Shown: in pieces, positions 10,932 through 27,222 of the stretch | Numbering within the stretch: the first letter of the stretch is position 1 | Layout of the letters: every line of letters begins with the position of its first letter | Assembly (NCBI GenBank): GCA_027341315.1 | Contig: DAIENA010000001.1 | Location: forward strand, 1 to 38,872 | Direction of reading: 5' to 3' | From: an archaeon | GTDB taxonomy: Archaea > Nanobdellota > Nanobdellia > Pacearchaeales > GW2011-AR1 | Length of the DNA stretch: 38,872 nt | Notes under the pieces: generated by a model | Database searches by the model: none | The model's input: only the letters and a program-made list of their open reading frames with translations | What the model was told of the DNA's origin: nothing | Position numbers and translations under genes: made by a program

Positions 10932-11121
10932 ATTTTGAAATAGGACAAAATAATTTTCAAATTATAAATTTTTTGGTAAATAATTGTTGAAAATTCCAAG
11001 AAAATCTATTAACCACAACATTTTTAAACCATTTTTTAGTATCATTTATTATAGCACGTCTATCCATAAGTTACTCCTTAGGGGCGATTGTGTAAAATTA
11101 AAAATCACCGACGACAAAAAT

Positions 11122-11334
11122 ATGCATATTCTACAACCAAAGCACATTAAAATGAATGAAAAAGAAGTTGAAGAGCTTTTGGATAAATTAAATATCTCAA
11201 AAAGTCAGTTACCGAAAATTTTGGACGGTGATGTTGCGCTTCCGGAAGGTTGTGAAATCGGGGACGTCATAAAAATCGAGAGAAAAGATTCAGAGACCGG
11301 CGAATTAAATATTTATTTTAGGGTTGTTGTATAA
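11122..11334 (+). CDS. rpoH: DNA-directed RNA polymerase subunit H (Rpo5)
   Basis: MHILQPKHIKMNEKEVEELLDKLNISKSQLPKI...GDVIKIERKDSETGELNIYFRVVV has the RpoH pattern H-x-L-x-P-K-H...QLPKI...YR-V-V. Its stop overlaps the rpoB start (TAATG). The upstream part of the ORF-track frame has no plausible start codon. Confidence 0.8.
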   Translation: MHILQPKHIKMNEKEVEELLDKLNISKSQLPKILDGDVALPEGCEIGDVIKIERKDSETGELNIYFRVVV

Positions 11335-14300: not shown

Positions 14301-14597
14301 CGTTCACGTGGCGGTGCCTTAAGACTTGGTGAAATGGAGCAACAGGCGCTTGTCGCCCACGGTGCGTCGCTGTTATTAAAAGAAAGATACGATTCAGACA
14401 AGGTCGTTCTTCCGATTTGTTCAAAGTGCGGTTCGATAGGTATCGAGGACAAAATAAGAAAAAAGACGGTTTGTCCGGAATGTCATTCGGAAGAAATTGA
14501 ACCAATCGAAGTTTCGTACGCTTTCAAACTTTTGATTGAAGAACTTCAGGGACTTCACGTTCACACTAAATTTGAATTAAAAAATAAATACGAATAA
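11334..14597 (+). CDS. rpoB: DNA-directed RNA polymerase subunit B, unsplit (B'' and B' in one gene)
   Basis: 1087 aa in the canonical position after rpoH, with GYFIIKGNERV, MTHEGYNMEDA, GEMEQQALVAHGAS and a C-terminal zinc ribbon CSKCGS...CPEC. Confidence 0.95.
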   Translation: MVEGKNHLVVKKYLEDHSLVESNIISYNEFISERMQEIVDDISNSIEQDEEEFKIQLGKIEVGKPAVIEADGSTSTIMPYEARIRNLTYAAPISLELTVKKDGQVDSEVVEIGKIPVMVKSKACNTSGFDREKLIENYHDPLDPGGYFIIKGNERVMVMAEDLAENQPFIEENSKGQLVLKLFSLKGTYRIPTTIKEAKDGIFETSFSRFKDMPTVILLKALGLTKESDIARYIGKETDSVIVNLYEFANIATEEDAMMYIAEKTNLQGTKKEILDRVKQRIDSYLFPHIGQNKASRMKKAVTICKLVKQFLLAKEDTTLRTDKDHYANKRVRLSGDLLTTLFKVNLGILIRDLQYSLQKSQKRKKFFSIKVLAKSTLFSHRIESAIATGSWTGERSGVTQNMDKTNYLATISQLQRVASMLESGQENFKARTLHPTHFGRFCPIETPEGTETGLRKNLALLSKVSTRVDLDEDKFIKYLEKSGLDKELNEGSEVFFNGNYIGNVKDSKEFSNLIKEKRRGGELPIELSINEKEGLQTILISTEPGRVLRPLIVIADGVSKLKNEHLIQLEQGNLKWIDLVKSGIIEYIDAAEEESALVAMNSNELTTEHTHMEVDPVAFLGVVTSITPYVNHNSCAKLIKGTKSFKQSLGLYAANYLCRLDTDVSVLQYPQKPIVRSFVYDTLNTYPAGQNLTVAIMTHEGYNMEDALVLNKGSLQRGVGRSFYFRPYSAIEMNYAGGLKDEIVIPDKDVSGYKMESLYGSLENDGIIYPEADINEGEVLIGKTSPPKFLSEAREISVRTKKESSVTLRQEEKGIVESVFVTIDDEGNKIVQVKTRDLRIPELGDKYATPYGQKGVIGAIIDEEDVPFTQSGVRPDVLFNPHGLPSRMSVGYLLELLAGKVGCLRGETVDGTAFGGETKKDLEEQLQNLGFRYDGKETMRSGVTGKKIESKIFLGNLYYLKLKYMVANKMHGRASGKIALLTRQPIEGRSRGGALRLGEMEQQALVAHGASLLLKERYDSDKVVLPICSKCGSIGIEDKIRKKTVCPECHSEEIEPIEVSYAFKLLIEELQGLHVHTKFELKNKYE

Positions 14598-14598
14598 A

Positions 14599-14913
14599 AT
14601 GACAGTAAAATTAATCCAGTTCGAAAAACCAGAAGAGTATGATTTAATTAAAAATTACCTTCTGGAAAAATATAAAGATGAAAAAGATTTGGTTTCACAT
14701 GTGAATGATTCAAGAGCTTATTTTGGTCTCAAGGAATATGAAGTTTCTGCCAACCGTGAAGAAAAGAGAGTAATTCTTTTCGAATTTAAAAAAGGTGGAG
14801 AAAAAATTAATAATTTAGAAAAAGAATTAAAAGGGATACTTGGTAAAAATGAATTAAGTGAGAAAACGAGGGAAGATTTTCAGAAAGTTCTGGGGGAAAC
14901 AATTAAAAATTAA
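14599..14913 (+). CDS. Small hypothetical protein sORF-1 (104 aa), paralogue of sORF-3
   Basis: Starts 1 nt after the rpoB stop (TAA-A-ATG). Shares YFG.KEYEVSAN..KRVI and GEKINNLEKEL with 15171-15473. Confidence 0.65.
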   Translation: MTVKLIQFEKPEEYDLIKNYLLEKYKDEKDLVSHVNDSRAYFGLKEYEVSANREEKRVILFEFKKGGEKINNLEKELKGILGKNELSEKTREDFQKVLGETIKN

Positions 14914-14914
14914 A

Positions 14915-15169
14915 ATGAAAACAGAAATAAAATTTAAAGATGAAAATGAGTTTGAAATAATGGGAATGCAAATAGCAAATTATTTTGAAAAGGTGCTGGG
15001 AGTTTACACTCCGGGAGAATTAAAAAGTCATTACAGTATTAAAAATGAAAATCCTGTTGAAATAGAGATCTATCACAAGGAAAGAACTATTTTTATCGAC
15101 GGGAAAACAAATCATAAGAAAAGCTTTCTTGAAAAAATTGCAAAAGAACCATCGGAGGTTTTAGTTTAA
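14915..15169 (+). CDS. Small hypothetical protein sORF-2 (84 aa)
   Basis: ATG 1 nt after the sORF-1 stop; the ORF-track start at 14858 would overlap sORF-1. The N-terminus EIKFKDENEFEIMGMQIANYFEK resembles the N-termini of the other small ORFs. Confidence 0.55.
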   Translation: MKTEIKFKDENEFEIMGMQIANYFEKVLGVYTPGELKSHYSIKNENPVEIEIYHKERTIFIDGKTNHKKSFLEKIAKEPSEVLV

Positions 15170-15170
15170 A

Positions 15171-15473
15171 ATGAACACTATAACAAATTTAGAGAAATTA
15201 AATATGACGGAAATAAAAATAATTCCCATAGAAACATACAGCCAATACGAGGCAGTCAGAGATTATCTTTTAAAACTGCATTTAGATGAAAAAAACGGAA
15301 CTTTGTTTAGAGGTAGAAATAAAACTTATTTTGGAAATGAAAAATATGAAATCTCTGCAAACATGGATAAAAAAAGAGTAATTATAATCCAAGAAAACGA
15401 GGATGGAGAAAAGATTAATAATTTAGAAAAAGAATTAAACAATGTAGTTGGAGGTTTGAATAATACAAAATGA
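15171..15473 (+). CDS. Small hypothetical protein sORF-3 (100 aa), paralogue of sORF-1
   Basis: Starts 1 nt after the sORF-2 stop. The alignment to sORF-1 is obvious by eye. An internal ATG (MTEIKII) aligns with the sORF-1 start and is an alternative start. Confidence 0.65.
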   Translation: MNTITNLEKLNMTEIKIIPIETYSQYEAVRDYLLKLHLDEKNGTLFRGRNKTYFGNEKYEISANMDKKRVIIIQENEDGEKINNLEKELNNVVGGLNNTK

Positions 15474-15733
15474 CAACAGTAGAACAATATGTCGCGTATG
15501 GAAAAATAAAGTTGAGAGAATTGGAAACAGAATTATTATTTGAATTTTCCCAAGTTAAGGCAAATTTAAAACAGTTGGAAGAAGGAAACGAAAATAGTGA
15601 ATTAGGAATTCATTGTCTTAGATTTCGAAGGATGTCTTTAGAGTTGGGATATTATGACGTGGATACTTCAAAGCTGGATAGGGAATATAAATCACTTTTG
15701 CCTCAAATAAATAAATACATTAAAGCAAGTTAA
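15470..15733 (+). CDS. Small hypothetical protein sORF-4 (87 aa, probably helical)
   Basis: ATGA overlap with the sORF-3 stop. Its own stop lies 1 nt before the rpoA ATG. No similarity seen to sORF-1, -2 or -3. Confidence 0.55.
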   Translation: MTTVEQYVAYGKIKLRELETELLFEFSQVKANLKQLEEGNENSELGIHCLRFRRMSLELGYYDVDTSKLDREYKSLLPQINKYIKAS

Positions 15734-15734
15734 A

Positions 15735-18700
15735 ATGAAAAAAACAATATCAAAAAAAATCGGAGAAATTAAGTTTTCACTTCTTAGCCCTGAAGAAATC
15801 AAGAAAATTTCAGTTGCGAAAATTGTGACGCCGGAACTTTACGATATTGACGGCTATCCCGTCGACGGTGGATTAATGGATTTAAGACTCGGAGCAATTG
15901 ACCCGGGAGTCAGATGCCGAACCTGCGGAGGGAAAATAAAAGAATGTCTTGGACACCCCGGAAGTATAGACCTTGCTAAACCAATAATTCATTTAAAATA
16001 TGTTCCGGTTATAGAACTTGGACTTAGATGCTTCTGTCAGGAATGCGGGAAACTTATGCTTGACGACAAAGACCTGAAAAAATATACTCCAAGCCAGAGA
16101 GCAAAAAAAGCAAAAGATGCAAAAAAATGCCCTCATTGTCAGGCGACTCAGGAAAAAGTAAAACTTGACAAACCAACGAGTTTTTACCGGGGGAAAACGA
16201 GAATTTTCCCGACGGAAATACGTGAGAGTCTTGTTAGAATCCCGGACGAGGAACTTAAAAAAATTGCAATCGACCCGACGACATGCAGAGTTGAATGGTC
16301 TGTTTTGAATTCATTGATTGTCCCCCCCGTAACCGTGAGACCGTCTATAATTCTTGAAACAGGGGAAAGAAGTGAAGATGACCTTACTCATAAATTGTCC
16401 GATATAATCAGAGCAAATCAAAGACTTTGGGAAAACCTAAACGCCGGAGCCCCTGAAGTTATTATTGAAGACCTTTGGGATTTATTACAATACCACGTCA
16501 CGACATTTTTTGACAACACCGTCGCCAGAGTTCCGCCAGCAAGACACAGAAGCGGTCAGCCGTTAAAAACAATTGAAGAAAGAATAAAAGGAAAAGAAGG
16601 AAGAATAAGAAAAAATATTGCAGGTAAAAGAGTTAATTATTCGGGTAGAACAGTTATTAGCCCCGACCCAAATATTAATATAAATGAAGTTGGAGTTCCT
16701 TATGAAATCGCAAAAGTTGTGACTGTTGCCGAGACTGTTAATGATTTTAATAAAGAAAAACTTTCAGAATTAATTAAAAGCGGGGAAAACTGGCCTGGAG
16801 CAAATTATGTAATAAGACCCGACGGACGAAAGAAAAAAATTACTCCGGAACTTCAGGAAGAAATTATTGAAGAATTAAAACCCGGTTACCAAGTTGAGAG
16901 ACATTTACAAAACGGGGATATCGTTTTATTCAACAGACACCCCTCACTTCACAGGGCAAGTTTAATGGCGCATTATGTTCGGGTTTTACCGGGAAGAACT
17001 TTTCGGGTTCACCCTGCTGCCGCTAATCCGTATAACGCCGACTTCGACGGTGACGAGATGAATATTCACTCTCCGCAGACTGAAGAAGCAAGAGCGGAAG
17101 CAAAAATACTTCTTGACGTTAAACAAAATTTAATTTCTCCGAAAAACAATACTAACTTAATCGGTTGTATTGTCGACGCTGTAACCGGAAATTATATGCT
17201 TGGTAAAAGAGATTTCACAAGAGAGGATGCAAATCAACTTTTGTATAAATCAGGAATTGAAGCTGAATTCAGTGGAAAGACAGTTTCAGGAAAAGAGATT
17301 TTTTCAATGGTGCTTCCTGAAATTGATTTCTCAAATAATTCTCTTGACATAAAGAAAGGAAAAGTCACTAAAGGTGAAATTGATAAATCAACTTTTGGAG
17401 ATGAAGAAGGAGAACTTGTAAAAATAATTGACGCAAAATACGGACGAAGCGCCGCTTTTGAAACTATAAGAAAGGCATTTAACCTTGGAAAAAATTATCT
17501 TTCTGAAACAGGAATCACTATTTCCGTCGAGGATTTTGATTTGGATGAAGAAACTATTGAAGAAAGTGAAAAAATAATTAAGGCGACGGAAAAGAAGGCT
17601 GAGGAAATAATCAAATCTTACGAGGACGGAACACTTGAACTTATTCCGAGTAAATCTCTTGAAGAATCACGGGAGATTCACTTATTGAAGGTTCTTAATG
17701 AAGCGAGAACAAAAATCGGTGCGATGGTTAAAGAAAGATTCCCTGAAACAAATCCGGTTGACCACATGATAAAGTCCGGTGGCGGGGGAAACATTTTGAA
17801 TATTACACAAATGGCGTCGAGTGTTGGTCAGCAGGCTTTTGCCGGCGGAAGAATCGACATCGGGTACACTCAAAGAACTCTTCCATTTTTCAAGAGAGGA
17901 GATTTGTCGCCGCGTTCGAGAGGATTTATCAGAAATGGTTTTATAAGAGGGCTTAAACCCGACGAATTTTTCTTCCAGTCAATTACAGGAAGAGATTCAA
18001 TTATGGACACTGGTTTACGAACTCCTAAGTCGGGATATTTGTATAGACGTCTAGCTAACGCGCTTCAGGACATGAGAGTCGAATACGACGGAACAATAAG
18101 AGATTCAGGAAACAATATAATTCAATTCCAGTACGGCGTCGACGGATATGACGTTTCGAAAATCCACCTGAAAGAAAAAATTTCTCCGGGTGAAGCGGTC
18201 GGACTCGTGACGGCGCAGTCTTTCGGTGAAGCTTCGACGCAGATGGTCCTTAACACGTTCCACATGGCCGGTGTTGCTGAAATGCAGGTTACAACCGGTT
18301 TACCCAGAATAATCGAAATTTTTGATGCAAGGAAAAAACCTTCTTCTCCGAAAATGGAAATTTATCTTGAGAAAGATTATGACAATGAAGAAGAAGCAAA
18401 ATCTTTTGCAGAGAGAATAAAAGAAGTTACATTAAAGGAAGTCTCTACGGAAATTAATCTTGACTTTGGAGAAAAAGTAATTACAATTAATCTAGACAAA
18501 GATGAACTTAAAAAAACTCATGCAACTCCAAATAAGGTTGCCGAGAGACTTAATGAATTAGGATTTAAAGTTGAAAATAAAGGAAACTCGATTGTCCTTA
18601 ACGCTTCGGATTATCAATTTAAAGAAATTTATCAACTTAAAGAAAAATTAAAGAAATCAATTATTTCAGGAATTAAGGGAATTGAACAGATTTTAATTTC

Positions 18701-19223
18701 TAAGAGAGGAAAAGATTTTATTGTAATCACCCTTGGAACAAATTTGGAAGAAATGATGAAGATGAAAGAGGTTGACAAAAAAAGAATTATATCAAATGAT
18801 TTACATGAAGTTGCACGGGTTCTTGGAATTGAAGTTGCAAGACAATTAATAATAAATGAAATTAAGGAAGTTCTTGATTCCCAGGGTCTTGACATTCATG
18901 TTAAACATCTTGAGTTAATTGCCGACGCTATGACAAACACCGGAGAAGTTAAGGGAGTTACGAGAATGGGAATTATCGCCCAGAAGGCGTCTATACTTGC
19001 AAGAGCAACTTTTGAAACCCCTGTAAGGCAGTTTGTGAATGCAATTATTAAAGGCTCGTCAGATAAACTTGAAAGTGTTATTGAAAACGTCATACTTAAT
19101 CAGCCGGTTCCCGTCGGTACAGGGCTTCCCGGTCTTCTCGTGAACGTTATCGGTTCTTTGGCCGGAGATGACAAACACAAAAAAACTGCCGAGTCGAAAA
19201 TTGTCGAAGAAGCAAATAAATAA
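15735..19223 (+). CDS. rpoA: DNA-directed RNA polymerase subunit A, single unsplit gene (A' and A'' equivalents fused)
   Basis: One 1162-aa ORF carries the zinc-binding N-terminus, NADFDGDEMN (catalytic Mg site), the bridge helix GRDSIMDTGLRTPKSGYLYRRL, and the A''-type trigger-loop region PGEAVGLVTAQSFGEASTQMVLNTFHMAGV. There is no stop or frame change between them. Confidence 0.9.
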   Translation: MKKTISKKIGEIKFSLLSPEEIKKISVAKIVTPELYDIDGYPVDGGLMDLRLGAIDPGVRCRTCGGKIKECLGHPGSIDLAKPIIHLKYVPVIELGLRCFCQECGKLMLDDKDLKKYTPSQRAKKAKDAKKCPHCQATQEKVKLDKPTSFYRGKTRIFPTEIRESLVRIPDEELKKIAIDPTTCRVEWSVLNSLIVPPVTVRPSIILETGERSEDDLTHKLSDIIRANQRLWENLNAGAPEVIIEDLWDLLQYHVTTFFDNTVARVPPARHRSGQPLKTIEERIKGKEGRIRKNIAGKRVNYSGRTVISPDPNININEVGVPYEIAKVVTVAETVNDFNKEKLSELIKSGENWPGANYVIRPDGRKKKITPELQEEIIEELKPGYQVERHLQNGDIVLFNRHPSLHRASLMAHYVRVLPGRTFRVHPAAANPYNADFDGDEMNIHSPQTEEARAEAKILLDVKQNLISPKNNTNLIGCIVDAVTGNYMLGKRDFTREDANQLLYKSGIEAEFSGKTVSGKEIFSMVLPEIDFSNNSLDIKKGKVTKGEIDKSTFGDEEGELVKIIDAKYGRSAAFETIRKAFNLGKNYLSETGITISVEDFDLDEETIEESEKIIKATEKKAEEIIKSYEDGTLELIPSKSLEESREIHLLKVLNEARTKIGAMVKERFPETNPVDHMIKSGGGGNILNITQMASSVGQQAFAGGRIDIGYTQRTLPFFKRGDLSPRSRGFIRNGFIRGLKPDEFFFQSITGRDSIMDTGLRTPKSGYLYRRLANALQDMRVEYDGTIRDSGNNIIQFQYGVDGYDVSKIHLKEKISPGEAVGLVTAQSFGEASTQMVLNTFHMAGVAEMQVTTGLPRIIEIFDARKKPSSPKMEIYLEKDYDNEEEAKSFAERIKEVTLKEVSTEINLDFGEKVITINLDKDELKKTHATPNKVAERLNELGFKVENKGNSIVLNASDYQFKEIYQLKEKLKKSIISGIKGIEQILISKRGKDFIVITLGTNLEEMMKMKEVDKKRIISNDLHEVARVLGIEVARQLIINEIKEVLDSQGLDIHVKHLELIADAMTNTGEVKGVTRMGIIAQKASILARATFETPVRQFVNAIIKGSSDKLESVIENVILNQPVPVGTGLPGLLVNVIGSLAGDDKHKKTAESKIVEEANK

Positions 19224-19299: not shown

Positions 19300-20550
19300 A
19301 TGAAAAACTTAGTGTGTGATAATTCAAGAGAAGACTTTCCTGTAGATTATATCGGTGGAAAAGGAAAAGGATTACTAAAATTAAAAAATCTGGAAAAAGA
19401 ACTTAGACAGGAATATTTTTGGAGAATAAAAAAAGTGGAAATTCCAAATTTTTTTATAATTCCTGTGGGTTATGATTTAAATTTTAAAGAAAATTTATTT
19501 AAGTTGGCCGATTCCTTAGGACCTAAAAAACTTGCTGTGCGTTCGTCGTCTCCATATGAAGACGCGGAAAATAATTCTTTTGACGGCATTTTTGAAAGCC
19601 ATCTTGATGTTTCAAGAGACGACCTTCTTGAAGCAATTAATAGTGTAAAAAATTCAGCATTGGGGAAAAAAGCTGTGGAATATTCAAAAGAATTCAATGT
19701 TCCTATTGACAACAAAATGGCAGTTATTGTGCAAAAAATGGTGTCGAGGGAAAATACAGGAATAATTTACTCAAAGTTTCCGGCTATTTCTGATGTAACA
19801 AGAATTATTTCAAATTTTGGAAATAAAACTGAAAATATTCTTTTTGAAAGAAAAACTTTAGATTATTATGATGAAAGTGGCAATGAAATCAAAGAGAAGA
19901 AAATTGTTTCTGGCAGGAGAATAATCCAAGACGGGAATTTGGGCCATATTGATTTTTTTAGTGGATTTTCTGAACTTTCTCATTTTGTTGAAAAAAAATT
20001 TGGTTACCCTGTGAGAATTGAATATTCTTATGACGGAGAAAAAGAGGAATTAAATTTATTGCAAGCACGTTCTATAGAGAAGGGAAAAAGTTTGGAAAAA
20101 ATTATAATGCCCGAACTTGAAGCTGGAAATTTAATTGCCGGAACTTATGGAGTAAATGGAATTGGAGACGTCACACTTCCGTTAGTTAATATAATTAATT
20201 CTAAAGAAGATGGAAAAGAACATCATATCTCAGAAAATGAAATTGAAAAGTTAGACAAGAAATATAAAAATGGTTATATTCTTCTTGCACAATATTTAAA
20301 ATTTGATGATAATTATATTGATCCTATAACCCCCCATAAAAAAGCCGCCATAATTGGGAGTCAATTTTTGGGAGGAGATGATAGCCCCGACCATGATTGG
20401 GATATAGCAAGAAAAAAAGGATTGCTTTATCTTTTAATTCCGGATTTTTATTTTGAATTTTCCGGAGACAGGAAATCACCATTGAAAACTGGAGATATGG
20501 TGAGAATTATCAGCGACGGGGTTAAAGGAATGGTTTACAAAGTTGATTAA
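19300..20550 (+). CDS. PEP/pyruvate-binding (PPDK_N, ATP-grasp) domain protein with a C-terminal PEP-utilising-enzyme mobile (swivel) domain; no third domain
   Basis: IGGKGKGLLKL, LAVRSSSPYEDAENNSFDGIFES and MAVIVQKMV are typical of the PEP synthase/PPDK N-terminal domain. The C-terminus LGGDDSPDHDWDIARKKG...GDMVRIISDGVKGMVYKV resembles the phospho-His swivel domain (GGxxSHxAIxAR...G..V.VDG..G.V). Confidence 0.6.
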   Translation: MKNLVCDNSREDFPVDYIGGKGKGLLKLKNLEKELRQEYFWRIKKVEIPNFFIIPVGYDLNFKENLFKLADSLGPKKLAVRSSSPYEDAENNSFDGIFESHLDVSRDDLLEAINSVKNSALGKKAVEYSKEFNVPIDNKMAVIVQKMVSRENTGIIYSKFPAISDVTRIISNFGNKTENILFERKTLDYYDESGNEIKEKKIVSGRRIIQDGNLGHIDFFSGFSELSHFVEKKFGYPVRIEYSYDGEKEELNLLQARSIEKGKSLEKIIMPELEAGNLIAGTYGVNGIGDVTLPLVNIINSKEDGKEHHISENEIEKLDKKYKNGYILLAQYLKFDDNYIDPITPHKKAAIIGSQFLGGDDSPDHDWDIARKKGLLYLLIPDFYFEFSGDRKSPLKTGDMVRIISDGVKGMVYKVD

Positions 20551-20619: not shown

Positions 20620-21036
20620 ATGGTCAACACAATTGATATGCAGGACTTAAGAAGACTCGCTCTCTTTAGAAAAATTACAAGACTTGAAACAAGATATTGT
20701 TTTAGTTATAATGAGATATTAATGTTTTGTGTTCCAAAAAGAGAAGTTTCAATCGCTCTTGGAAGAAACGGAGAAAATCTTAAAAGAATGTCGGATATAT
20801 TAAAAAAAAGAGTTAGAATTATTCCGCTTCCAAACGGAATTAACGACGCGAAATCGTTTATACAAGCCGTTATTGCTCCAGTCGGATTTACCGGAATCGA
20901 AATCACGCCTGATGAAATCGTCGTCAACGCCGGCTCCGAAAATAAGGCGGCGCTTCTTGGACGAAACAAACGGCGATTCCTTGAAATGAAAAAAATCGTT
21001 AAAGATTTTTTTAGACTTGAATACAGAATTATTTAA
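20620..21036 (+). CDS. nusA: Archaeal NusA-like transcription termination/antitermination factor (two KH domains)
   Basis: 138 aa in the typical position between rpoA and rps12, with KH-like GRNGENLKRMSDIL and LLGRNKRRFLEMKKIV. Confidence 0.8.
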   Translation: MVNTIDMQDLRRLALFRKITRLETRYCFSYNEILMFCVPKREVSIALGRNGENLKRMSDILKKRVRIIPLPNGINDAKSFIQAVIAPVGFTGIEITPDEIVVNAGSENKAALLGRNKRRFLEMKKIVKDFFRLEYRII

Positions 21037-21361
21037 CTTTTTTTTCGAGAACCGAATTAATTACGTCTGAATATTCTTTATAAGATTCTTTTATACAATT
21101 TTTTACAGATTCTGGATTGTGAGGAAATTCTTGAATAAATTCTGATTCGGTAATAAATCCGTAATATTTTTTATTTTTGTTTCTATCGCTTACGTCTATG
21201 ACGTCGACGTAACACTCGTCTACATTAACATTTTTTACAATGGCGGGATGATAATCAAACTCAATTTCTCTCGCAACAACTTCCCAAACCAAATCTCCGG
21301 GCTTTATACCTTCAAACCTTGCTTTTTGCTTTTGATAATTGTTTTTGGTTAATAGTTCCAT
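21029..21361 (-). CDS. Hypothetical protein (110 aa), opposite strand, convergent with nusA (8-nt overlap)
   Basis: Intact ORF. PGDLVWEVVAREIEFDYHPAIV resembles the first strands of Tudor/PWWP-type SH3-like barrels (weak, by eye). Confidence 0.45.
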   Translation of the reverse strand: MELLTKNNYQKQKARFEGIKPGDLVWEVVAREIEFDYHPAIVKNVNVDECYVDVIDVSDRNKNKKYYGFITESEFIQEFPHNPESVKNCIKESYKEYSDVINSVLEKKVK

Positions 21362-21470: not shown

Positions 21471-21782
21471 ATGAAAAAAATTATCAACAATTATTCTTCA
21501 CAGGTAATTTACCGCGGAGAAAAAAAGGAACTTGAAAATATTTTGAAGATTCTCTGCCAAAATTTAGGCACTGGTTTTGAAGAGCAAATATCAGTTTTTT
21601 CAAAGGAAGATAAAAAAATAGAAAGTCCAGACCAAAGAATATATTACAATCTTGAAAGAATTCTTTATATTTCAAACTCATCGAAGCCGAAATTTTTATT
21701 TCCGATAATTCTAAAAATTTCCAAAAAGGCCGATGAGAAATTTTCTGAAAAATACGGGAAAATTGACATGATTGAGAAATAA
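21471..21782 (+). CDS. Hypothetical protein (103 aa)
   Basis: ORF only; no motif recognised. Confidence 0.4.
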   Translation: MKKIINNYSSQVIYRGEKKELENILKILCQNLGTGFEEQISVFSKEDKKIESPDQRIYYNLERILYISNSSKPKFLFPIILKISKKADEKFSEKYGKIDMIEK

Positions 21783-21838
21783 TTTATTTTTTGATTGCAA
21801 AAAATGTCCTCGCGATTTTTAAAAATATACCCAATAAA

Positions 21839-21846
21839 TTTATAAA
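21839..21846 (+). promoter_or_regulatory. TATA box (TTTATAAA) for rps12
   Basis: Centre about 31 nt upstream of the ATG at 21874. Confidence 0.45.
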
Positions 21847-21873: not shown

Positions 21874-22296
21874 ATGGGATTGAAAAGTGCATTCAAAAAA
21901 GTGAAAGACCGGAAGAAATTCCGATGGAAAGACAGAGCTTACAAAGTTCACACTCTTGACCTTTTTGCTAAGTCTGACCCACTTGGCGGAGCCAATCAGG
22001 CAAAGGGAATTGTTCTTTCAAAATTTCAAAAAGAAGCAAGACAGCCAAACTCCGCGATGAGAAAATGCTGCAGAGTTCAGCTGACAAAAAATGGAAAGAC
22101 CGTCGGTGTTTTTATTCCCGGAAACCTCGCGCAGAAATTTATCGACGAGCACGACGAAGTTATGATTGAAAGAATCGGCGGGAAACAGGGAAAAAGTAAA
22201 GGCGACATGCCCGGAATTCGATATCAAATTATAAAAGTAAATGATCAACCATTGCAAAGACTTGTAAGAGGGAAGATACAAAAAGGTAGAAGATAA
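21874..22296 (+). CDS. rps12: 30S ribosomal protein uS12
   Basis: [27 protein letters not shown] and [15 protein letters not shown] are hallmark archaeal S12 segments. Confidence 0.95.
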
Positions 22297-22297
22297 A

Positions 22298-22597
22298 ATG
22301 GAAAAAACTTTTGAATTCAGTGATGAAAAATATTATGGACAGGTTATTCCTTATATGGAAAAAAAATTTCCCGGCTTAACAGGGAGTAAACTGGAAGATT
22401 TTTATTATGTTCCTGCTGGAGCCAGTGTGGGTCACGATTTAAAAGACGGAACTAAGGCTCTTATTGGTAAAGCAATACATTCCCGCGTTCAGGTAAAAGT
22501 TTTCTCCGACGACGAAGAGTTATTTAAAGAGTTAGGGGAATTAGAAAAACTTACGTCGACGACCGGACGAAACGGCGGGACGGGGACGGGAAATTAA
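22298..22597 (+). CDS. Small hypothetical protein sORF-A (99 aa), paralogue of sORF-B
   Basis: Starts 1 nt after the rps12 stop. The N-terminus TFEFSDEKYYGQVIPYMEKKF matches sORF-B EFQFLREAYYRQVIPLLEEYF. Gly/Thr-rich C-terminal tail. Confidence 0.6.
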   Translation: MEKTFEFSDEKYYGQVIPYMEKKFPGLTGSKLEDFYYVPAGASVGHDLKDGTKALIGKAIHSRVQVKVFSDDEELFKELGELEKLTSTTGRNGGTGTGN

Positions 22598-22907
22598 AAT
22601 GACAGAAGAGTTTCAATTTTTAAGAGAAGCGTATTATAGGCAAGTTATTCCTTTATTGGAAGAATATTTTTCTGATAAAGAACTTGGAAAGAAAATTTTA
22701 GCAGATAAGTCTTTACACAATTTAGATAATCTTGCAATGATTTATAATGATTTTTTTAATGAAAATAAGGGAGAAATATTAATAATTACTCCTTCAAAAA
22801 TATCTCCTGAAAAATTTGTTTTGGTGGTTACCTCGAAAGATGAAAAATTAATGAAAGGATTAGAAAAATTATCAATGGGGGAAGTAGGAAATTAAAATGA
22901 CAGAAGA
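22589..22907 (+). repeat. Perfect 21-bp direct repeat GGAAATTAAAATGACAGAAGA at 22589-22609 and 22887-22907, bracketing sORF-B
   Basis: Read directly. The copies are exactly 298 bp apart. Each spans a stop codon, the 1-nt spacer and the first four codons (MTEE) of the next gene. Confidence 0.9.
22599..22895 (+). CDS. Small hypothetical protein sORF-B (98 aa), paralogue of sORF-A
   Basis: Starts 1 nt after the sORF-A stop and ends 1 nt before the rps7 ATG. Begins MTEE, as rps7 does. Confidence 0.6.
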   Translation: MTEEFQFLREAYYRQVIPLLEEYFSDKELGKKILADKSLHNLDNLAMIYNDFFNENKGEILIITPSKISPEKFVLVVTSKDEKLMKGLEKLSMGEVGN

Positions 22908-23529
22908 ACAAGAAATAAAAACTGAAGGTAAAAAATTGAATTTCAAGATTTTTGATATGTGGGACATTTCAGAAATAAAAGTTGAAGATCCTGGATTAAG
23001 AGGGATTATTAACCTTGAACCAAAATTAATTTTGAAATCCGAAGGAAGAAACGTCGTTAAACACGGACAGACGCGGGTGAATATCGTTGAGAGACTTATG
23101 AATAAAATCGCGCTTACCGGACACCGAGGGAAAAAACACAAAATTGAAGTTGGAAGAGCGACCGGAAAATATTCACGAAATATGAAAATTGTTATCGAGG
23201 CTCTTCAGGCCGTCGAGAAAAAAACCGGAAAAAATCCGGTCGAAGTTTTGGTTCGTGCGATTGAAAAAATTTCTCCAAGGGACGAAACAACAATAATTGA
23301 ATACGGCGGTGCAAGATATCCTCAAGCAGTCGACGTTTCGCCAATACGACGTGTTAACCTTGCTTTAAGAAATCTTGTTCACGGCGCAAGCGACAAATCG
23401 TTCGGGAAAAAGAAAAAACTTTCGCAGTCACTTGCTGACGAAATAATTCTCGCCTACGAAGAAAACGGGGAAAGTTCTGCCCTGAAAAAGAAAAAAGAAG
23501 CCGAGGCGCAGGCAGACAGCGCAAGATAA
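22897..23529 (+). CDS. rps7: 30S ribosomal protein uS7
   Basis: IVERLMNKIALTGH, NPVEVLVRAIEKISPRDETTIIEYGGARYPQAVDVSPIRRVNLALRNL is the archaeal S7 pattern. Confidence 0.95.
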   Translation: MTEEQEIKTEGKKLNFKIFDMWDISEIKVEDPGLRGIINLEPKLILKSEGRNVVKHGQTRVNIVERLMNKIALTGHRGKKHKIEVGRATGKYSRNMKIVIEALQAVEKKTGKNPVEVLVRAIEKISPRDETTIIEYGGARYPQAVDVSPIRRVNLALRNLVHGASDKSFGKKKKLSQSLADEIILAYEENGESSALKKKKEAEAQADSAR

Positions 23530-23558
23530 AATTTTAGTAAATTATTTATCACAATAAA

Positions 23559-23566
23559 TTTATAAA
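23559..23566 (+). promoter_or_regulatory. TATA box (TTTATAAA) for the 23589 ORF
   Basis: Centre about 26 nt upstream of the ATG at 23589. Confidence 0.45.
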
Positions 23567-23588
23567 TAGAAACTTTCTAAATTCCCTC

Positions 23589-24059
23589 ATGACAGATTTT
23601 GATGAACTCAAAGAAAGTTTAGAAAGAGATTACTCGACGGGCGACGCGGTGCATAAAATGATTACCGACGAATTGTTTGAGGATATCAGAGTAAAAGAGA
23701 AGAAACTTGAAAATATAGTTTCTAATGAGTTCAAGAGATTAATAGAAATTCCAAACATGATAATTCCTCCCCGTAAAAATAAAGGCGAAATGCCTCAAAT
23801 ATTGGAATACAAGGTTTCTTACAATAAAGAATTAAAAGATTTTGAAATAAAAATAACAAAAATGAAACTTCCAAACGGAAAAGTAATGGACGACAATAAA
23901 TACGCGTCGAGAACTTACGGATGTCCGCACGATTATACGTTTCCGATTTGCGGAATAAACGGAGAAGTCAGCAACATTGTAAAAGAATTCAAAATAAAGT
24001 ACAACGTCCGGGGAATAAAAAATGTCAACCACAACTGTTTTCACGAGATAAAGAAATAA
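23589..24059 (+). CDS. Hypothetical protein (156 aa) with a Cys/His-containing C-terminal region
   Basis: ORF with its own TATA box. The C-terminus YGCPHDYTFPICG...HNCFHE could bind metal (speculative). Confidence 0.5.
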   Translation: MTDFDELKESLERDYSTGDAVHKMITDELFEDIRVKEKKLENIVSNEFKRLIEIPNMIIPPRKNKGEMPQILEYKVSYNKELKDFEIKITKMKLPNGKVMDDNKYASRTYGCPHDYTFPICGINGEVSNIVKEFKIKYNVRGIKNVNHNCFHEIKK

Positions 24060-24107
24060 TTCTGGTTTTTTCGAAAAATATATATAGAAAAATAACTTGC
24101 TTTCACC

Positions 24108-24395
24108 ATGTATGATGAATTGGTAAAAGAAATGCTGAACAAGGGAAAGAAACAGTCTCTTGAAACAATTGATGGGATAGAAAGAATTCTTAAAAGTCAA
24201 TATGGAAGTATTGAGGGAAATGGGGTTCTAAAACCGGACAAGAACTTAAATGAGAATTATAATCTTTTAATAAATGCCCTCGGAAATTATAAAAAATCAA
24301 TAATTAATTTTTGGAATTCGCAAAAGAAAAAAATATCAGGACTTGGCATTCTTGAAACCGTCGTTTCAGAAAATTCCAAAAAAAGAAAAAAATAA
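24108..24395 (+). CDS. Hypothetical protein (95 aa)
   Basis: ORF only. Confidence 0.4.
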   Translation: MYDELVKEMLNKGKKQSLETIDGIERILKSQYGSIEGNGVLKPDKNLNENYNLLINALGNYKKSIINFWNSQKKKISGLGILETVVSENSKKRKK

Positions 24396-24415
24396 AACCA
24401 ATTCACTGTGTTAAT

Positions 24416-24940
24416 CTAAAATTTAAATTCCTCGCCACCTTGTTCCCATTCTTTCCTTATCTTTTCAGTTAAAAAATCCTTTGAAACTCTTCCGCTCCAC
24501 TCGTCGCTTCCTTTTTTTCTGTATGGAATGTAAAAATCCGGATCGTTATAAAAATTATAAGATTTTAAAACAGGATATTTTGTGTCTGTATTTTTTCTGA
24601 AAAATTTTGGTTCGCCAACTAATCCTTTTTGAATAAATACGTTAAGATAATAATTATAAGACTTTGTTGCCATTTCATCGACAAACGGATTAACCACCTC
24701 TTCTATCCATAATTTTTTATTTTTGTCCAAGAAATCAATTGACTTGTAAGTTTGCTCCCCATAAGTTTTTGTGATTATTTCTTGGTAAATATCTTTCCAA
24801 AATTCATGACGGCATCCCCCAAACATAATTAATCCATCGTTCGCGTCTGCGGATTCAACAAAATTTACATAAGCGTCAATTTCAAATTTATTCTCAAGAC
24901 CCGTTCTTTCGCTGATCCTTTTTTTTATTTTTTCATCCAT
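24416..24940 (-). CDS. Hypothetical protein (174 aa)
   Basis: Intact minus-strand ORF between rps7 and the EF-2 gene. No motif recognised. Confidence 0.5.
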   Translation of the reverse strand: MDEKIKKRISERTGLENKFEIDAYVNFVESADANDGLIMFGGCRHEFWKDIYQEIITKTYGEQTYKSIDFLDKNKKLWIEEVVNPFVDEMATKSYNYYLNVFIQKGLVGEPKFFRKNTDTKYPVLKSYNFYNDPDFYIPYRKKGSDEWSGRVSKDFLTEKIRKEWEQGGEEFKF

Positions 24941-24997
24941 ATCGCATAAGCGGGTTCATTATTATTAAATATTATTGTCCTCAAAACTACAAAAAGT

Positions 24998-25026: not shown

Positions 25027-27222
25027 ATGGCAGAAAAAGAAACAAGTTTGGAGAAAATCAACAGATTGACTTCTAATCAGGAGACGATTCGTAATATCGC
25101 GACGTCCGCACACATTCACCACGGGAAAACGGCTTTTACGGACAATCTTTTGGCGGCGTCCGGAATGATGGCGGCAAAAAACGCGGGCGACCTTGAGGAA
25201 GGAATGGCGACGTGGCAGCACGCCGACGAACAGGAACGACTTATGACAGTCGACGCTGCGAACGTTTCGATGGCGCACTCTTATCAGGGAACAGAATATT
25301 TAATTAATTTAATTGACACCCCCGGCCACGTCGATTTCGGAGGAAATGTTACGAGGGCGATGCGTGCTATCGACGGAACTTTTGTTTTAATCTGCGCCGT
25401 TGAAGGAATAATGCCCCAGACTGAAACTGTTTTAAGACAGGCTTTGAAAGAAAGAGTAAAACCCGTTCTTTTTATTAACAAAGTCGACCGATTGATCAAC
25501 GAACTTAAATTTACGCCCGAACAAATGCAGGAGAGATTTATGAAATTAATTCAGGAATTTAATCATTTAATCGAGCAAATTGCAGAAAAAGAATTTGCGC
25601 AAAAGTGGAGAGTTAACGTTAACGACGGAAGCGTTGCTTTTGGTTCAGCGAGGGAAAACTGGGCGCTTTCAATTCCATTTATGAAAAAGAAAAATGTAAG
25701 TTTCAAAGATATTTACAAAATTTACGACGAGACAATTCCAAAAGAAGAAAGACAAAAGTGGGTTTGGGAAAACGCCGCGCTCTATGAAGTGGTTCTTGAT
25801 ATGGCAGTAAAACATTTGCCTAATCCATTAGAAGCACAAAAATATAGAATTCCAAAAATCTGGCACGGGGACGAGAATTCAGAATTTGGAAAAGCTTTGA
25901 TGACATGTGACCGAAAAGGAGAGGTTGGTTTTGTTGTAACAAGAATTGTTATCGACCCACGTAGCGGAAAAGAAGTTTGCGCCGGAAGACTTTATTCGGG
26001 AACGATAAAAAGCGGAATGGACGTTTATTGCAACAATGCAGCCAAATCCGGAAAAATTCAGCAGGTTCTTGTTTATAACGGAATTAAACCCGAGCAACTT
26101 CTTGAGGTCCCGGCGGGAAACGTTCTTGCGATAAGCGGTGTCGACGTCGATGTCGGTGAAACAATAACGGAAAAAGAACAAACTCCTTTTGAAGAGATTA
26201 AACACATTTTTCAGCCGGTTATTACCAAGTCAATTGAAGTTGTTAAAACGCAGGATTTACCAAAGCTTATTGAAATATTAAGAAAAGTTGCAAAGGAAGA
26301 CCCGTCGATAAAAATCGCGATTAACGAGGAAACGGGCGAGTCTTTACTTTCCGGAATGGGAGAACTTCATCTTGAAATTGTCGAGAACAGAATAAAAACC
26401 GAAAAAGGCCTTGAGGTTAAAACTTCTCCGCCGATTGTGGTTTACAGAGAGAGTGTTTCGAAAATTTCAGCTCCGAGTGAAGGGAGAAGTCCAAACAAAC
26501 ATAATAGCTTTTTTATTAAAGTCGAACCCTTGCCTGCAGAACTTGCTGAGCTTATTGATAAAGGAGAAATTTCTGAGGGAAGGATCAAGAAAAAATCAGA
26601 GCAGATTACAAAAGTGCTTTCGGGTATCGGGTGGGGCTCTGACGAAATAAGAAATGTTAAAGATGTTTACAAAGGAAATATTCTTTTCGACGAGACGCGT
26701 GGAGAAGTTCACATCGGAGAAGTAATTGAAATGGTAATGGACGCTTTCGAGATGGTGATGGACCAGGGGCCTCTTGCAAGAGAACCGTGTATGAATCTTA
26801 AAGTTACGTTAACAGATATAAAACTTCACGAGGACGCGATTCACCGTGGACCGGCGCAAGTTTATCCTGCTGTAAGAGACGCGATTAAAGAAGCGTTTAA
26901 GAGCGCCGGGCCGACTCTTTTGGAGCCGTTACAAGTTCACCTGATTGAAGTCCCTGAAAATCTTATGGGCTCAGCGTCGAAATTAGTCGGAAGTAAAAGA
27001 GGACAACTTCTCGGAATGAAACAGGAAGGCGGAGCGATGAGCCTTGAAGCAAAGATTCCCGTCGCTGAAATGATTGGATGGGCGAGCGATTTGAGAAGTG
27101 CAACTGAAGGCCGTGGAATTTCGTCGCTTCGAGACCAGAGTTTTGAAAAGGTTCCGCAGTCGCTACAACCCGACGTAATCAGAAAAATCAGAGACAGAAA
27201 AGGACTTGCGGAAAATCAGTAA
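25027..27222 (+). CDS. fusA: Translation elongation factor 2 (aEF-2)
   Basis: GTPase motifs AHIHHGKT, DTPGHVDF and NKVDR. The diphthamide-site region is HEDAIHRGPAQV. 731 aa. Confidence 0.95.
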   Translation: MAEKETSLEKINRLTSNQETIRNIATSAHIHHGKTAFTDNLLAASGMMAAKNAGDLEEGMATWQHADEQERLMTVDAANVSMAHSYQGTEYLINLIDTPGHVDFGGNVTRAMRAIDGTFVLICAVEGIMPQTETVLRQALKERVKPVLFINKVDRLINELKFTPEQMQERFMKLIQEFNHLIEQIAEKEFAQKWRVNVNDGSVAFGSARENWALSIPFMKKKNVSFKDIYKIYDETIPKEERQKWVWENAALYEVVLDMAVKHLPNPLEAQKYRIPKIWHGDENSEFGKALMTCDRKGEVGFVVTRIVIDPRSGKEVCAGRLYSGTIKSGMDVYCNNAAKSGKIQQVLVYNGIKPEQLLEVPAGNVLAISGVDVDVGETITEKEQTPFEEIKHIFQPVITKSIEVVKTQDLPKLIEILRKVAKEDPSIKIAINEETGESLLSGMGELHLEIVENRIKTEKGLEVKTSPPIVVYRESVSKISAPSEGRSPNKHNSFFIKVEPLPAELAELIDKGEISEGRIKKKSEQITKVLSGIGWGSDEIRNVKDVYKGNILFDETRGEVHIGEVIEMVMDAFEMVMDQGPLAREPCMNLKVTLTDIKLHEDAIHRGPAQVYPAVRDAIKEAFKSAGPTLLEPLQVHLIEVPENLMGSASKLVGSKRGQLLGMKQEGGAMSLEAKIPVAEMIGWASDLRSATEGRGISSLRDQSFEKVPQSLQPDVIRKIRDRKGLAENQ

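Follow-up and report, generated by a model that had tools for sequence, protein, structure and literature searches.

A 38,872-nucleotide (nt) stretch of archaeal DNA (the window: contig DAIENA010000001.1, positions 1 to 38,872, of GenBank assembly GCA_027341315.1, lineage Pacearchaeales GW2011-AR1) carries the archaeal RNA-polymerase/ribosomal super-operon, with a backbone of RpoH, RpoB, RpoA, a NusA-like KH protein, S12, S7, and EF-2. In the canonical archaeal cluster, DPANN representatives included, S12 and S7 are adjacent (PMC10833476). In the window, two open reading frames (ORFs) instead lie between rps12 (uS12) and rps7 (uS7). We find that these two, ORF1 and ORF2, are genuine protein-coding genes, tandemly duplicated. 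They belong to a set of small proteins of the S12|S7 junction, defined in this analysis as family A, which has no detectable sequence or fold relatives beyond a superfamily proposed below, and whose genomic address is unusually precise. We lean toward the reading that ORF1 and ORF2 are resident accessory cistrons for small acidic binding proteins, which exploit and have to keep intact a chain of coupled genes, and are not core ribosomal proteins. We found no published description of family A, or of an S12|S7 interruption in DPANN, although this is absence of evidence only.

Coding status and family of ORF1 and ORF2

An earlier sequence-only reading had placed ORFs of 99 and 98 amino acids (aa) between rps12 and rps7, with 1-nt junctions. 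Both coordinates and junctions were re-read exactly, and the sequence is TAA-A-ATG at all three boundaries (S12/ORF1, ORF1/ORF2, and ORF2/S7). The window is AT-rich (GC = 0.35). Because the chance of a 99-codon open frame at the local base composition is ~1e-4 for each ORF, and the other frames contain 6 to 18 stops, it is unlikely that these frames are open by chance.

The two ORFs had also been called paralogues, and this is borne out by BLASTP and by an independent profile. Residues 1 to 24 align with 50% identity (pairwise E = 2e-6), and global alignment gives 33 to 35% identity. Furthermore, a hidden Markov model (HMM) built from 15 homologues of other genomes only, with no window sequences, matched both ORFs over their full length (ORF1, E = 1.7e-8; ORF2, E = 5.2e-7) among 6117 ORFs scanned.

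Related loci show that both frames are maintained. We compared 168 loci (L-numbers) from metagenome-assembled genomes labelled Pacearchaeota, Nanoarchaeota, or Woesearchaeota: 80 were from Genome Taxonomy Database genomes, found via S7, 80 from metagenomes, found via the RpoA N-terminus, and the rest from exact-protein look-ups. A strain with 98% DNA identity to the window (L001) encodes identical S12 and S7 proteins, and ORF1 and ORF2 with few substitutions. Its ORF1 also differs by two in-frame indels, of 12 and 3 nt, and both ORF frames are kept. ORF1 occurs in the population as in-frame length variants of 99, 103, and 104 aa. Six contigs carry the exact ORF2 protein; they come from several independent assemblies, GCA_027332365.1 among them, and the order S12-ORF1-ORF2-S7 is found on all four that reach both flanks. 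For orthologue pairs of ORF1 and ORF2, the ratio of nonsynonymous to synonymous substitution rates (dN/dS) is 0.18 to 0.33 (Nei-Gojobori, dS about 0.7 to 1.4), versus 0.02 to 0.03 for S12 and S7. ORF1 and ORF2 are under purifying selection, yet they evolve roughly ten times faster than S12 and S7. The sequence-only reading had staked its claim on a coding signal (codon periodicity, dN/dS); given these ratios, and strain indels that are in-frame only, that signal is real.

Members of family A are ~80 to 105 aa long, with an N-terminal strand and helix of the pattern [FILV]x[FILV]xxxxY[YFNT]xx[VI]xxY[LMFI] and a C-terminal helix with LxxLE[KE][LI], all of which are present in ORF1 and ORF2. Conserved positions lie in the hydrophobic/aromatic core of strand b1 and helix a1 (FxF....YYxxVxPYL) and in the last helix (LxxLEKL), and no catalytic-looking motif is conserved in the family alignments. 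The family is small. Its HMMER profile, searched against 1.84 billion cluster representatives, recovered 12 proteins at E ≤ 1e-3, 11 of them small (82 to 104 aa). The remaining one, an 853-aa repeat protein (P0012; P-numbers denote proteins), was judged spurious, since it matched through a short helical motif. An 11-sequence profile search added few proteins, and word-indexed homology searches with ORF1 and ORF2 returned only strain variants (97 to 98% identical).

Nearly all members with a readable genomic context share one address: P0009, P0010, P0013, and P0015 are all located between S12 and S7. When the family HMM was run on 656 ORFs from six operon junctions, it gave 25 matches, 25/25 at S12|S7, and among all 6117 ORFs in 1.74 Mb, the sole family match outside S12|S7 was P0014, on L083. 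Some family A relatives occur singly in other genomes.

The predicted fold of ORF1 and ORF2 is a small acidic alpha/beta sandwich. Both proteins are acidic, next to the basic S12 and S7 (isoelectric points, pI, in the table). The AlphaFold2 model of ORF1 (10-sequence alignment; predicted local distance difference test score, pLDDT, 80; predicted template modelling score, pTM, 0.72) has the order b1(2-8), a1(9-23), a2(29-37), b2(43-49), b3(52-59), b4(63-69), a3(73-84), followed by a disordered Gly-rich tail at residues 89 to 99. The ORF2 model (pLDDT 74) has N- and C-terminal elements in common with it.

The absence of a known domain, as first read from the letters, was upheld by sequence-profile and fold-library searches. 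There was no significant match in Pfam, NCBIfam, PHROGs, PADLOC, a PDB sequence-profile search, Foldseek against PDB (both models), or Foldseek against BFVD, nor any strong match to a known unrelated family in the sequence and fold libraries searched. The best Pfam match was DUF4754 (E = 0.05), and NCBIfam gave nothing below E = 0.03; neither protein is matched by a known ribosomal-protein or RNA-polymerase-subunit family. PADLOC gave nothing below E = 0.01 for any of 16 family members. The best PHROGs match (E = 0.008) concerned one member only, and the best BFVD match had E = 0.045, so that no phage or mobile-element assignment follows. The PDB sequence profile matched only adenylosuccinate synthetase (E = 0.004; judged spurious, as only a short helical motif was matched) and mS76 (E = 0.49). 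The weak top Foldseek matches of both models include C-terminal domains of the phosphoglucomutase family (9ix8, 4il8, 4hjh, and 6gyz; E = 0.02 to 0.5, TM 0.3 to 0.47). The best PDB values (E = 0.025 for ORF1 and 0.14 for ORF2, TMq ≤ 0.47) fall short of the thresholds for a TATA-binding protein (TBP)-like fold (Foldseek E < 1e-3 or TM > 0.5).

Junction signals around the inserted genes

A promoter-like element, CAATAAATTTATAAA, precedes S12, and a second copy precedes the gene that follows S7. It is an exact 15-nt repeat, with two copies only in the window, and its 14-nt core, AATAAATTTATAAA, is observed 2 times versus 0.32 expected. No TTTAWAWA motif lies inside 21874-23529. We take CAATAAATTTATAAA to resemble an archaeal transcription factor B recognition element and TATA box (BRE/TATA) spaced for leaderless transcripts. 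The element is a likely consensus sequence for promoters of leaderless mRNAs in this archaeon, and we infer that its two copies mark the start and end of an S12-ORF1-ORF2-S7 transcription unit. A sigma-70 promoter and terminator scan gave counts not above those of shuffled sequences, a bacterial model that is not applicable to an archaeon.

The boundaries on either side of ORF2 carry a perfect 21-nt direct repeat, GGAAATTAAAATGACAGAAGA, at a spacing of 298 nt. Because this repeat is perfect at both boundaries, the first 11 coding nucleotides are common to ORF2 and S7, which both begin MTEE. The tandem paralogues of L023 are likewise flanked by a junction repeat, of 37 nt. Such repeats as a general insertion scar were ruled out, since repeats of at least 20 nt occur only at the window/L001 and L023 paralogue pairs and at rpoB|rpoA of L109.

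G-rich stretches precede the internal cistrons in an AT-rich background (GGGACGGGGACGGGAAATTAAAATG before ORF2 and GGGGGAAGTAGGAAATTAAAATG before S7). GGAGGT precedes two of the ORFs at rpoB|rpoA, and family members of other genomes end in AAAGGAGAGGAAAATTAAAATG and similar sequences. Because G-rich motifs stand before the starts, and because the ORF1 tail is disordered in its model, we read the Gly-containing tails not as a protein feature but as codons that probably double as the ribosome-binding site of the next cistron. The sequence-only reading had taken both the LEKL motif and the Gly tail as shared ends of the two proteins. The motif stands as a genuine family feature, while for the tail, the downstream ribosome-binding site and the junction repeat are a better explanation than protein homology.

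Termination-reinitiation coupling requires overlaps or very short spacers (PMC10666635, PMC6728339). A +1-nt spacing lies in the coupling range, and about 20 nt already abolishes coupling (PMC10666635). An Rfam search gave no relevant match for the S12|S7 interval, and predicted folding of the junctions is not significant (z-scores -0.3 to -1.0). On these grounds, we rejected the idea that a structured RNA or a regulatory leader lies between S12 and S7.

Table 1. Features of the super-operon and its junctions in the window
Feature	Position	Strand	Description
RpoH	10984-11334		
RpoB	11334-14597		
rpoB|rpoA gap ORF	14599-14913	+	104 aa; 42% identical to 15171-15473 ORF; c7 HMM E = 4.9e-4
rpoB|rpoA gap ORF	14915-15169	+	84 aa; family c7; phmmer against L012 5741-5971, E = 8e-7
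rpoB|rpoA gap ORF	15171-15473	+	100 aa; c7 HMM E = 4e-6; paralogue of 14599-14913 ORF
rpoB|rpoA gap ORF	15470-15733		87 aa; no detectable relative, no Pfam match
RpoA	15735-19223		
NusA-like KH protein	20620-21036		
Promoter-like element (BRE/TATA-like)	21832-21846	+	28 nt before S12 ATG
rps12 (uS12)	21874-22296	+	140 aa; pI 10.5; Pfam PF00164, E = 2e-37
ORF1	22298-22597	+	99 aa; pI 5.4; family A
Junction repeat, copy 1	22589-22609	+	G-rich Shine-Dalgarno-like tail, TAA, A spacer, ATG, first ORF2 codons
ORF2	22599-22895	+	98 aa; pI 5.0; GC about 0.25; family A; tandem paralogue of ORF1
Junction repeat, copy 2	22887-22907	+	ORF2|S7 boundary
rps7 (uS7)	22897-23529	+	210 aa; pI 9.7; Pfam PF00177, E = 1.7e-33
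Promoter-like element, second copy	23552-23566	+	23 nt before next gene (23589)
EF-2	25027-27222		

Gap ORFs along the super-operon and across the clade

The S12|S7 split is the commoner state in this clade, and is not peculiar to the window genome. Gaps of more than 150 bp were found in 1/50 loci at rpoH|rpoB, 58/114 at rpoB|rpoA, 31/110 at rpoA|nusA, 50/109 at nusA|S12, 78/120 at S12|S7, and 73/89 at S7|EF-2. Around two thirds of the sampled Pacearchaeota/Nanoarchaeota relatives therefore break S12-S7, an adjacency that ranks among the most conserved in prokaryotic genomes. The 78 gaps at S12|S7 span 150 to 960 bp, in size classes that fit one, two, or three ORFs of ~70 to 110 aa, nearly always on the same strand and tightly packed. 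ORFan genes that appear to be translationally coupled fill this junction, and likewise rpoB|rpoA, nusA|S12, and S7|EF-2.

The gap ORFs are diverse. Among 510 phmmer clusters of junction ORFs, 434 are singletons; this, together with a merged profile (described below) that covers only a minority, rules out a single family for all gap ORFs in the clade. Unrelated ORFs often fill the S12|S7 slot, such as small membrane proteins and a nucleotidyltransferase. Resident families are also found at other junctions: one at nusA|S12 (12 loci, including window 21471-21782) and one at S7|EF-2 (10 loci, including window 23589-24059, 156 aa). In four S12|S7 slots (L022, 5775-5987; L060, 5796-5972; L075, 4656-4853; and L080, 5817-6017), the ORFs are of 58 to 70 aa with one predicted transmembrane helix, and their tails are LEKEVKQ- or LETEVKQ-like, which suggests that their 3' codons are constrained by the downstream initiation signal.

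Gap content turns over rapidly. On a neighbor-joining tree of S12 and S7 with 104 distinct taxa, there are at least 28 gap/no-gap changes and at least 12 changes in family presence; S12 and S7 are directly adjacent in 37/104 distinct relatives. Family copy number varies from 0 to 3. Within the window subclade, family A is present in the window, L089, L006, and L014, while L003 (S7 90% identical) has S12 and S7 adjacent with no insert, and L005 lacks family A and keeps only an unrelated gap ORF. Just outside the subclade, S12 and S7 are again adjacent in L004. The sequence-only reading held that absence or disruption in close relatives would count against it. Absence is indeed seen in L003, L004, and L005, but not in L001, L089, L006, or L014. 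Since two close relatives, L003 and L004, do without any insert between S12 and S7, family A is dispensable, which argues against a core ribosomal role.

A similar kind of insertion, as the sequence-only reading had proposed, occupies the rpoB-rpoA interval of the window (14599-15733), where four tightly coupled small ORFs of 104, 84, 100, and 87 aa are found. One of them belongs to family c7, whose other members lie in the rpoB|rpoA gaps of L009, L089, and L107, except for one that L012 carries between S12 and S7 (phmmer E = 1e-7 to 1e-9). Two more, at 14599-14913 and 15171-15473, belong to family c26. In seeded hhalign comparisons, family A and c7 match with a probability of 79 to 94% (E = 1.6e-5 to 1.1e-7), in a collinear alignment of 75 columns that starts at residue 1, and c7 and c26 match at 59 to 85% over their full length. 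Family A and c26 match at only 14 to 62%, over the N-terminal 27 columns only, and control comparisons with unrelated clusters gave at most 14%. A merged superfamily profile recognizes 31/110 ORFs at S12|S7 and 7/76 at rpoB|rpoA, and, at a probability of at least 50%, 0 of ~424 ORFs from elsewhere (other junctions, or the reverse strand). A superfamily member at one junction tends to go with one at the other (3/13 versus 2/61 loci, Fisher p = 0.035). Given the remote homology seen by hhalign and the c7 HMM matches, common kinship of the two insertions is probable, not proven: a single superfamily probably unites five window ORFs, of which three lie at rpoB|rpoA and the other two at S12|S7.

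Other small ORFs recur at rpoB|rpoA. Cys-rich (zinc-ribbon-like) ORFs of several unrelated families are found there (e.g., L103, L128, L137, L139, and L154). Many of their starts read MNKM or MSKM, which suggests that the true start is the second Met, right after the rpoB stop. The rpoB|rpoA gap of L163 (1951-3436) holds a type II restriction-modification pair (N6_N4 methylase and BsaWI-like endonuclease), and those of L146 (8238-8875) and L166 (8972-9569) hold MNT/HepT toxin-antitoxin pairs. In these relatives, selfish modules thus separate the genes of the two largest RNA-polymerase subunits. In addition, L089 encodes a HIT protein at nusA|S12, and one of the S12|S7 gaps contains an MNT-like gene.

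Compared with L001, the window shows four gene-sized indels elsewhere in the operon, while the S12-ORF1-ORF2-S7 block is intact. Some cargo is found at more than one junction. At rpoA|nusA, a 416-aa protein of the window (19300-20550) resembles the N-terminal ATP-grasp part of a phosphoenolpyruvate (PEP) synthase/rifampicin-phosphotransferase-type protein (NCBIfam E = 2e-18); this gene is absent from L001, and has a homologue at S7|EF-2 of L096 (E = 1e-101). At nusA|S12, L001 is missing a 718-bp block with two ORFs: a reverse-strand ORF of 110 aa (21029-21361), with homologues in the S7|EF-2 gaps of L063, L111, and L162, and a 103-aa ORF (21471-21782) of the nusA|S12-specific family. In GCA_027332365.1, the gene upstream of S12 is a 138-aa nusA-like ORF, not the 103-aa ORF; the block appears to be missing there too, and so to be polymorphic within the species. 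At S7|EF-2 (window 23534-24958 versus L001 4248-5905), L001 has a reverse-strand Q_salvage gene (PF10343) that the window lacks, and two window ORFs, one of 95 aa and one of 174 aa on the reverse strand, have no counterpart in L001. The 156-aa ORF is common to both.

Within the backbone, RpoA is a single 1162-aa ORF with Rpb1 domains 1 to 5 in the window, as also in L087, whereas in most archaea it is divided into A' and A''. No L30e gene was seen between rpoA and nusA, its place in the canonical cluster.

Competing explanations and known systems

We favor, with somewhat better than even confidence, a model of resident passenger cistrons. Under this model, a superfamily of small (~80 to 105 aa) acidic alpha/beta proteins, restricted to Pacearchaeota/Nanoarchaeota, would reside at set junctions of the super-operon: S12|S7 would house family A, and rpoB|rpoA its remote relatives. 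One leaderless transcript would start from the TATA-like element before S12, and each internal cistron would be translated by termination-reinitiation across a 1-nt TAA-A-ATG junction, where the 3' codons for the Gly-rich tail could also serve as a ribosome-binding site for the gene downstream. Junction sequences would stay uniform through selection for initiation signals. Copy number would shift by local birth and death, through unequal recombination or gene conversion at identical junction repeats; the proteins, for their part, evolve some tenfold faster than their neighbors and are frequently lost. They might act by protein binding, probably as homo- or heterodimers, on a partner in or around the transcription/translation machinery. 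A binding role is suggested by three features: only positions of the fold core are conserved, a catalytic motif is lacking, and the paralogues are in tandem. This is the weakest step of the model.

Several points weigh against this model. The tie of a binding protein to the machinery is argued from position and fold features only, and the boundaries of the transcription unit and the coupling are read from sequence alone. The link to rpoB|rpoA is a moderate profile-profile signal (59 to 94%) from thin alignments. AlphaFold had an alignment of just 10 sequences to draw on, and its model of ORF2 is poor in the middle. In several orthologue pairs dS is close to saturation, and the neighbor-joining tree behind the turnover counts is rough. 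P0014 is an exception to the genomic address, as it lies directly after EF-1alpha (L083, 255-554), followed by a 119-aa ORF and a further ORFan. Lastly, plainly selfish cargo (restriction-modification, MNT/HepT) at operon junctions of relatives leaves room for a role in conflict.

We consider it unlikely that these proteins are lineage-specific components of the machinery or cis-encoded assembly chaperones, with family A acting on the 30S subunit (S12/S7) and its relatives on RNA polymerase, at fixed stoichiometry and with co-translational engagement. Their position is strictly specific across S7 identities of 65 to 100%, and one superfamily lies between two pairs of subunits, each pair sharing a complex. 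Junctions with 1-nt coupling are typical of genes for heteromeric complexes (PMC10666635), the proteins are acidic next to very basic neighbors, and the superfamily tends to be present at both junctions together. However, direct S12-S7 adjacency in more than a third of distinct relatives, close ones included, the unrelated ORFs that often take the slot, a tenfold faster evolution than S12/S7, and a variable copy number all speak against fixed components. The proteins are also acidic and not RNA-binding in character, and match no ribosomal-protein or RNA-polymerase-subunit family. A bolder version, which seems to us quite doubtful, unites the S12|S7 and rpoB|rpoA ORFs in a single ancient family specific to Pacearchaeota. 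Its members would be accessory subunits that evolve fast, or else factors encoded in cis for assembly or protection, and would dock as homo- or heterodimers on both the small ribosomal subunit and RNA polymerase, delivered co-translationally from a slot between partner genes. If this were true, the core transcription and translation machines of ultra-small symbionts would carry lineage-variable add-ons.

Conflict-driven or selfish cargo would account for other aspects of the locus. Here, ORF1 and ORF2 would be immunity- or antitoxin-like proteins, or decoys for viral or host factors, that are carried along in an operon which is essential and strongly expressed, so that deletions there are hazardous. 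Rapid evolution, divergent tandem paralogues, and patchy presence fit this, as do gene-sized indels at neighboring junctions between 98%-identical strains, the occurrence of family c7 at two different junctions, and the presence of type II restriction-modification and MNT/HepT systems at equivalent junctions, with an MNT-like gene in an S12|S7 gap. Yet there is no PADLOC, Pfam, or PHROGs match and no partner toxin; being paralogous to one another, and with relatives that are found singly, ORF1 and ORF2 do not make up a two-component module. Families keep to one junction and are not mobile, and no integrase, transposase, recombinase, or att-like element was found in the operon, where the spacers are 1 nt. 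On balance, we give this explanation little credence. It is highly improbable that ORF1 and ORF2 are mere spacers, with functionless peptides and frames kept open solely for ribosomes to reach and reinitiate at S7. All junctions do lie in the coupling range, so that a nonsense mutation would be polar on S7 (inferred from PMC10666635), and ORF2 is very AT-rich, as weakly constrained sequence would be. However, dN/dS is well below 1, and the motifs and a confident predicted fold persist where S7 is only 65 to 75% identical. Nor should a useless spacer persist, since S12 and S7 become directly coupled again once it is simply deleted, as in L003 and L004.

Whatever their function, family A proteins offer a concrete target for proteomics and for the prediction of complex structures. 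The super-operon provides a natural system for the birth, duplication, and loss of new small proteins within essential operons. It raises the questions of whether regulator-poor genomes express new genes by embedding them in existing transcripts, and whether variable accessory proteins are added to the core machines of ultra-small symbiotic archaea. Pipelines that use S12-S7 or rpoB-rpoA synteny, or that call the intervening ORFs mis-assemblies, will mishandle this clade.

Among known systems, the str operon of Escherichia coli has a control point at the same place, since its S12-S7 intercistronic region is the site of S7 autoregulation, coupled to S12 translation. That region is a ~100-nt non-coding RNA element, whereas here the interval is coding over 600 nt, and its RNA shows no significant structure. 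The fold resembles TBP-like two-layer alpha-beta sandwiches, such as the C-terminal domain of phosphoglucomutase/phosphopentomutase, in its secondary-structure order: we liken the b-a-(a)-b-b-b-a order of ORF1 to the b-a-b4-a TBP-like topology. ORF1 and ORF2 have one strand fewer and no sequence similarity to these domains, so that this is a resemblance and not membership.

The MNT/HepT type II toxin-antitoxin modules of L146 and L166 are likewise small, tightly coupled pairs between core genes. Unlike them, ORF1 and ORF2 are paralogous, match no toxin-antitoxin or defence model, and have single counterparts in other genomes. A toxin-antitoxin pair was thus ruled out, in the absence of both database matches and two distinct partner components. 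Integron-type cassette arrays also consist of small, mostly ORFan genes in the same orientation, which are quickly gained and lost, vary in copy number, and have direct repeats at their boundaries, as is seen here. In contrast, the gap ORFs have no integrase, 1-nt spacers that are too short for an attC site, families bound to one junction, and repeats that are start, stop, and Shine-Dalgarno sequences. Integron gene cassettes were ruled out, as integrase and attC sites (imperfect inverted repeats of about 57 to 141 bp) are lacking and the junctions show no significant folding.

The coupled gene pairs of Huber et al. (PMC6728339, PMC10666635), which use termination-reinitiation, share with this locus very short (+1 nt) spacers, co-directional genes, and G-rich 3' ends of the upstream gene. 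Coupled pairs often encode subunits of one complex (PMC6728339, PMC10666635). The chain proposed here, where coupling is read from sequence, instead includes ORFan passengers with no known complex. The backbone and gene order of the window are those of the canonical archaeal RNA-polymerase/ribosomal cluster (PMC10833476); in this clade, by comparison, every junction of that cluster but rpoH|rpoB is frequently interrupted.

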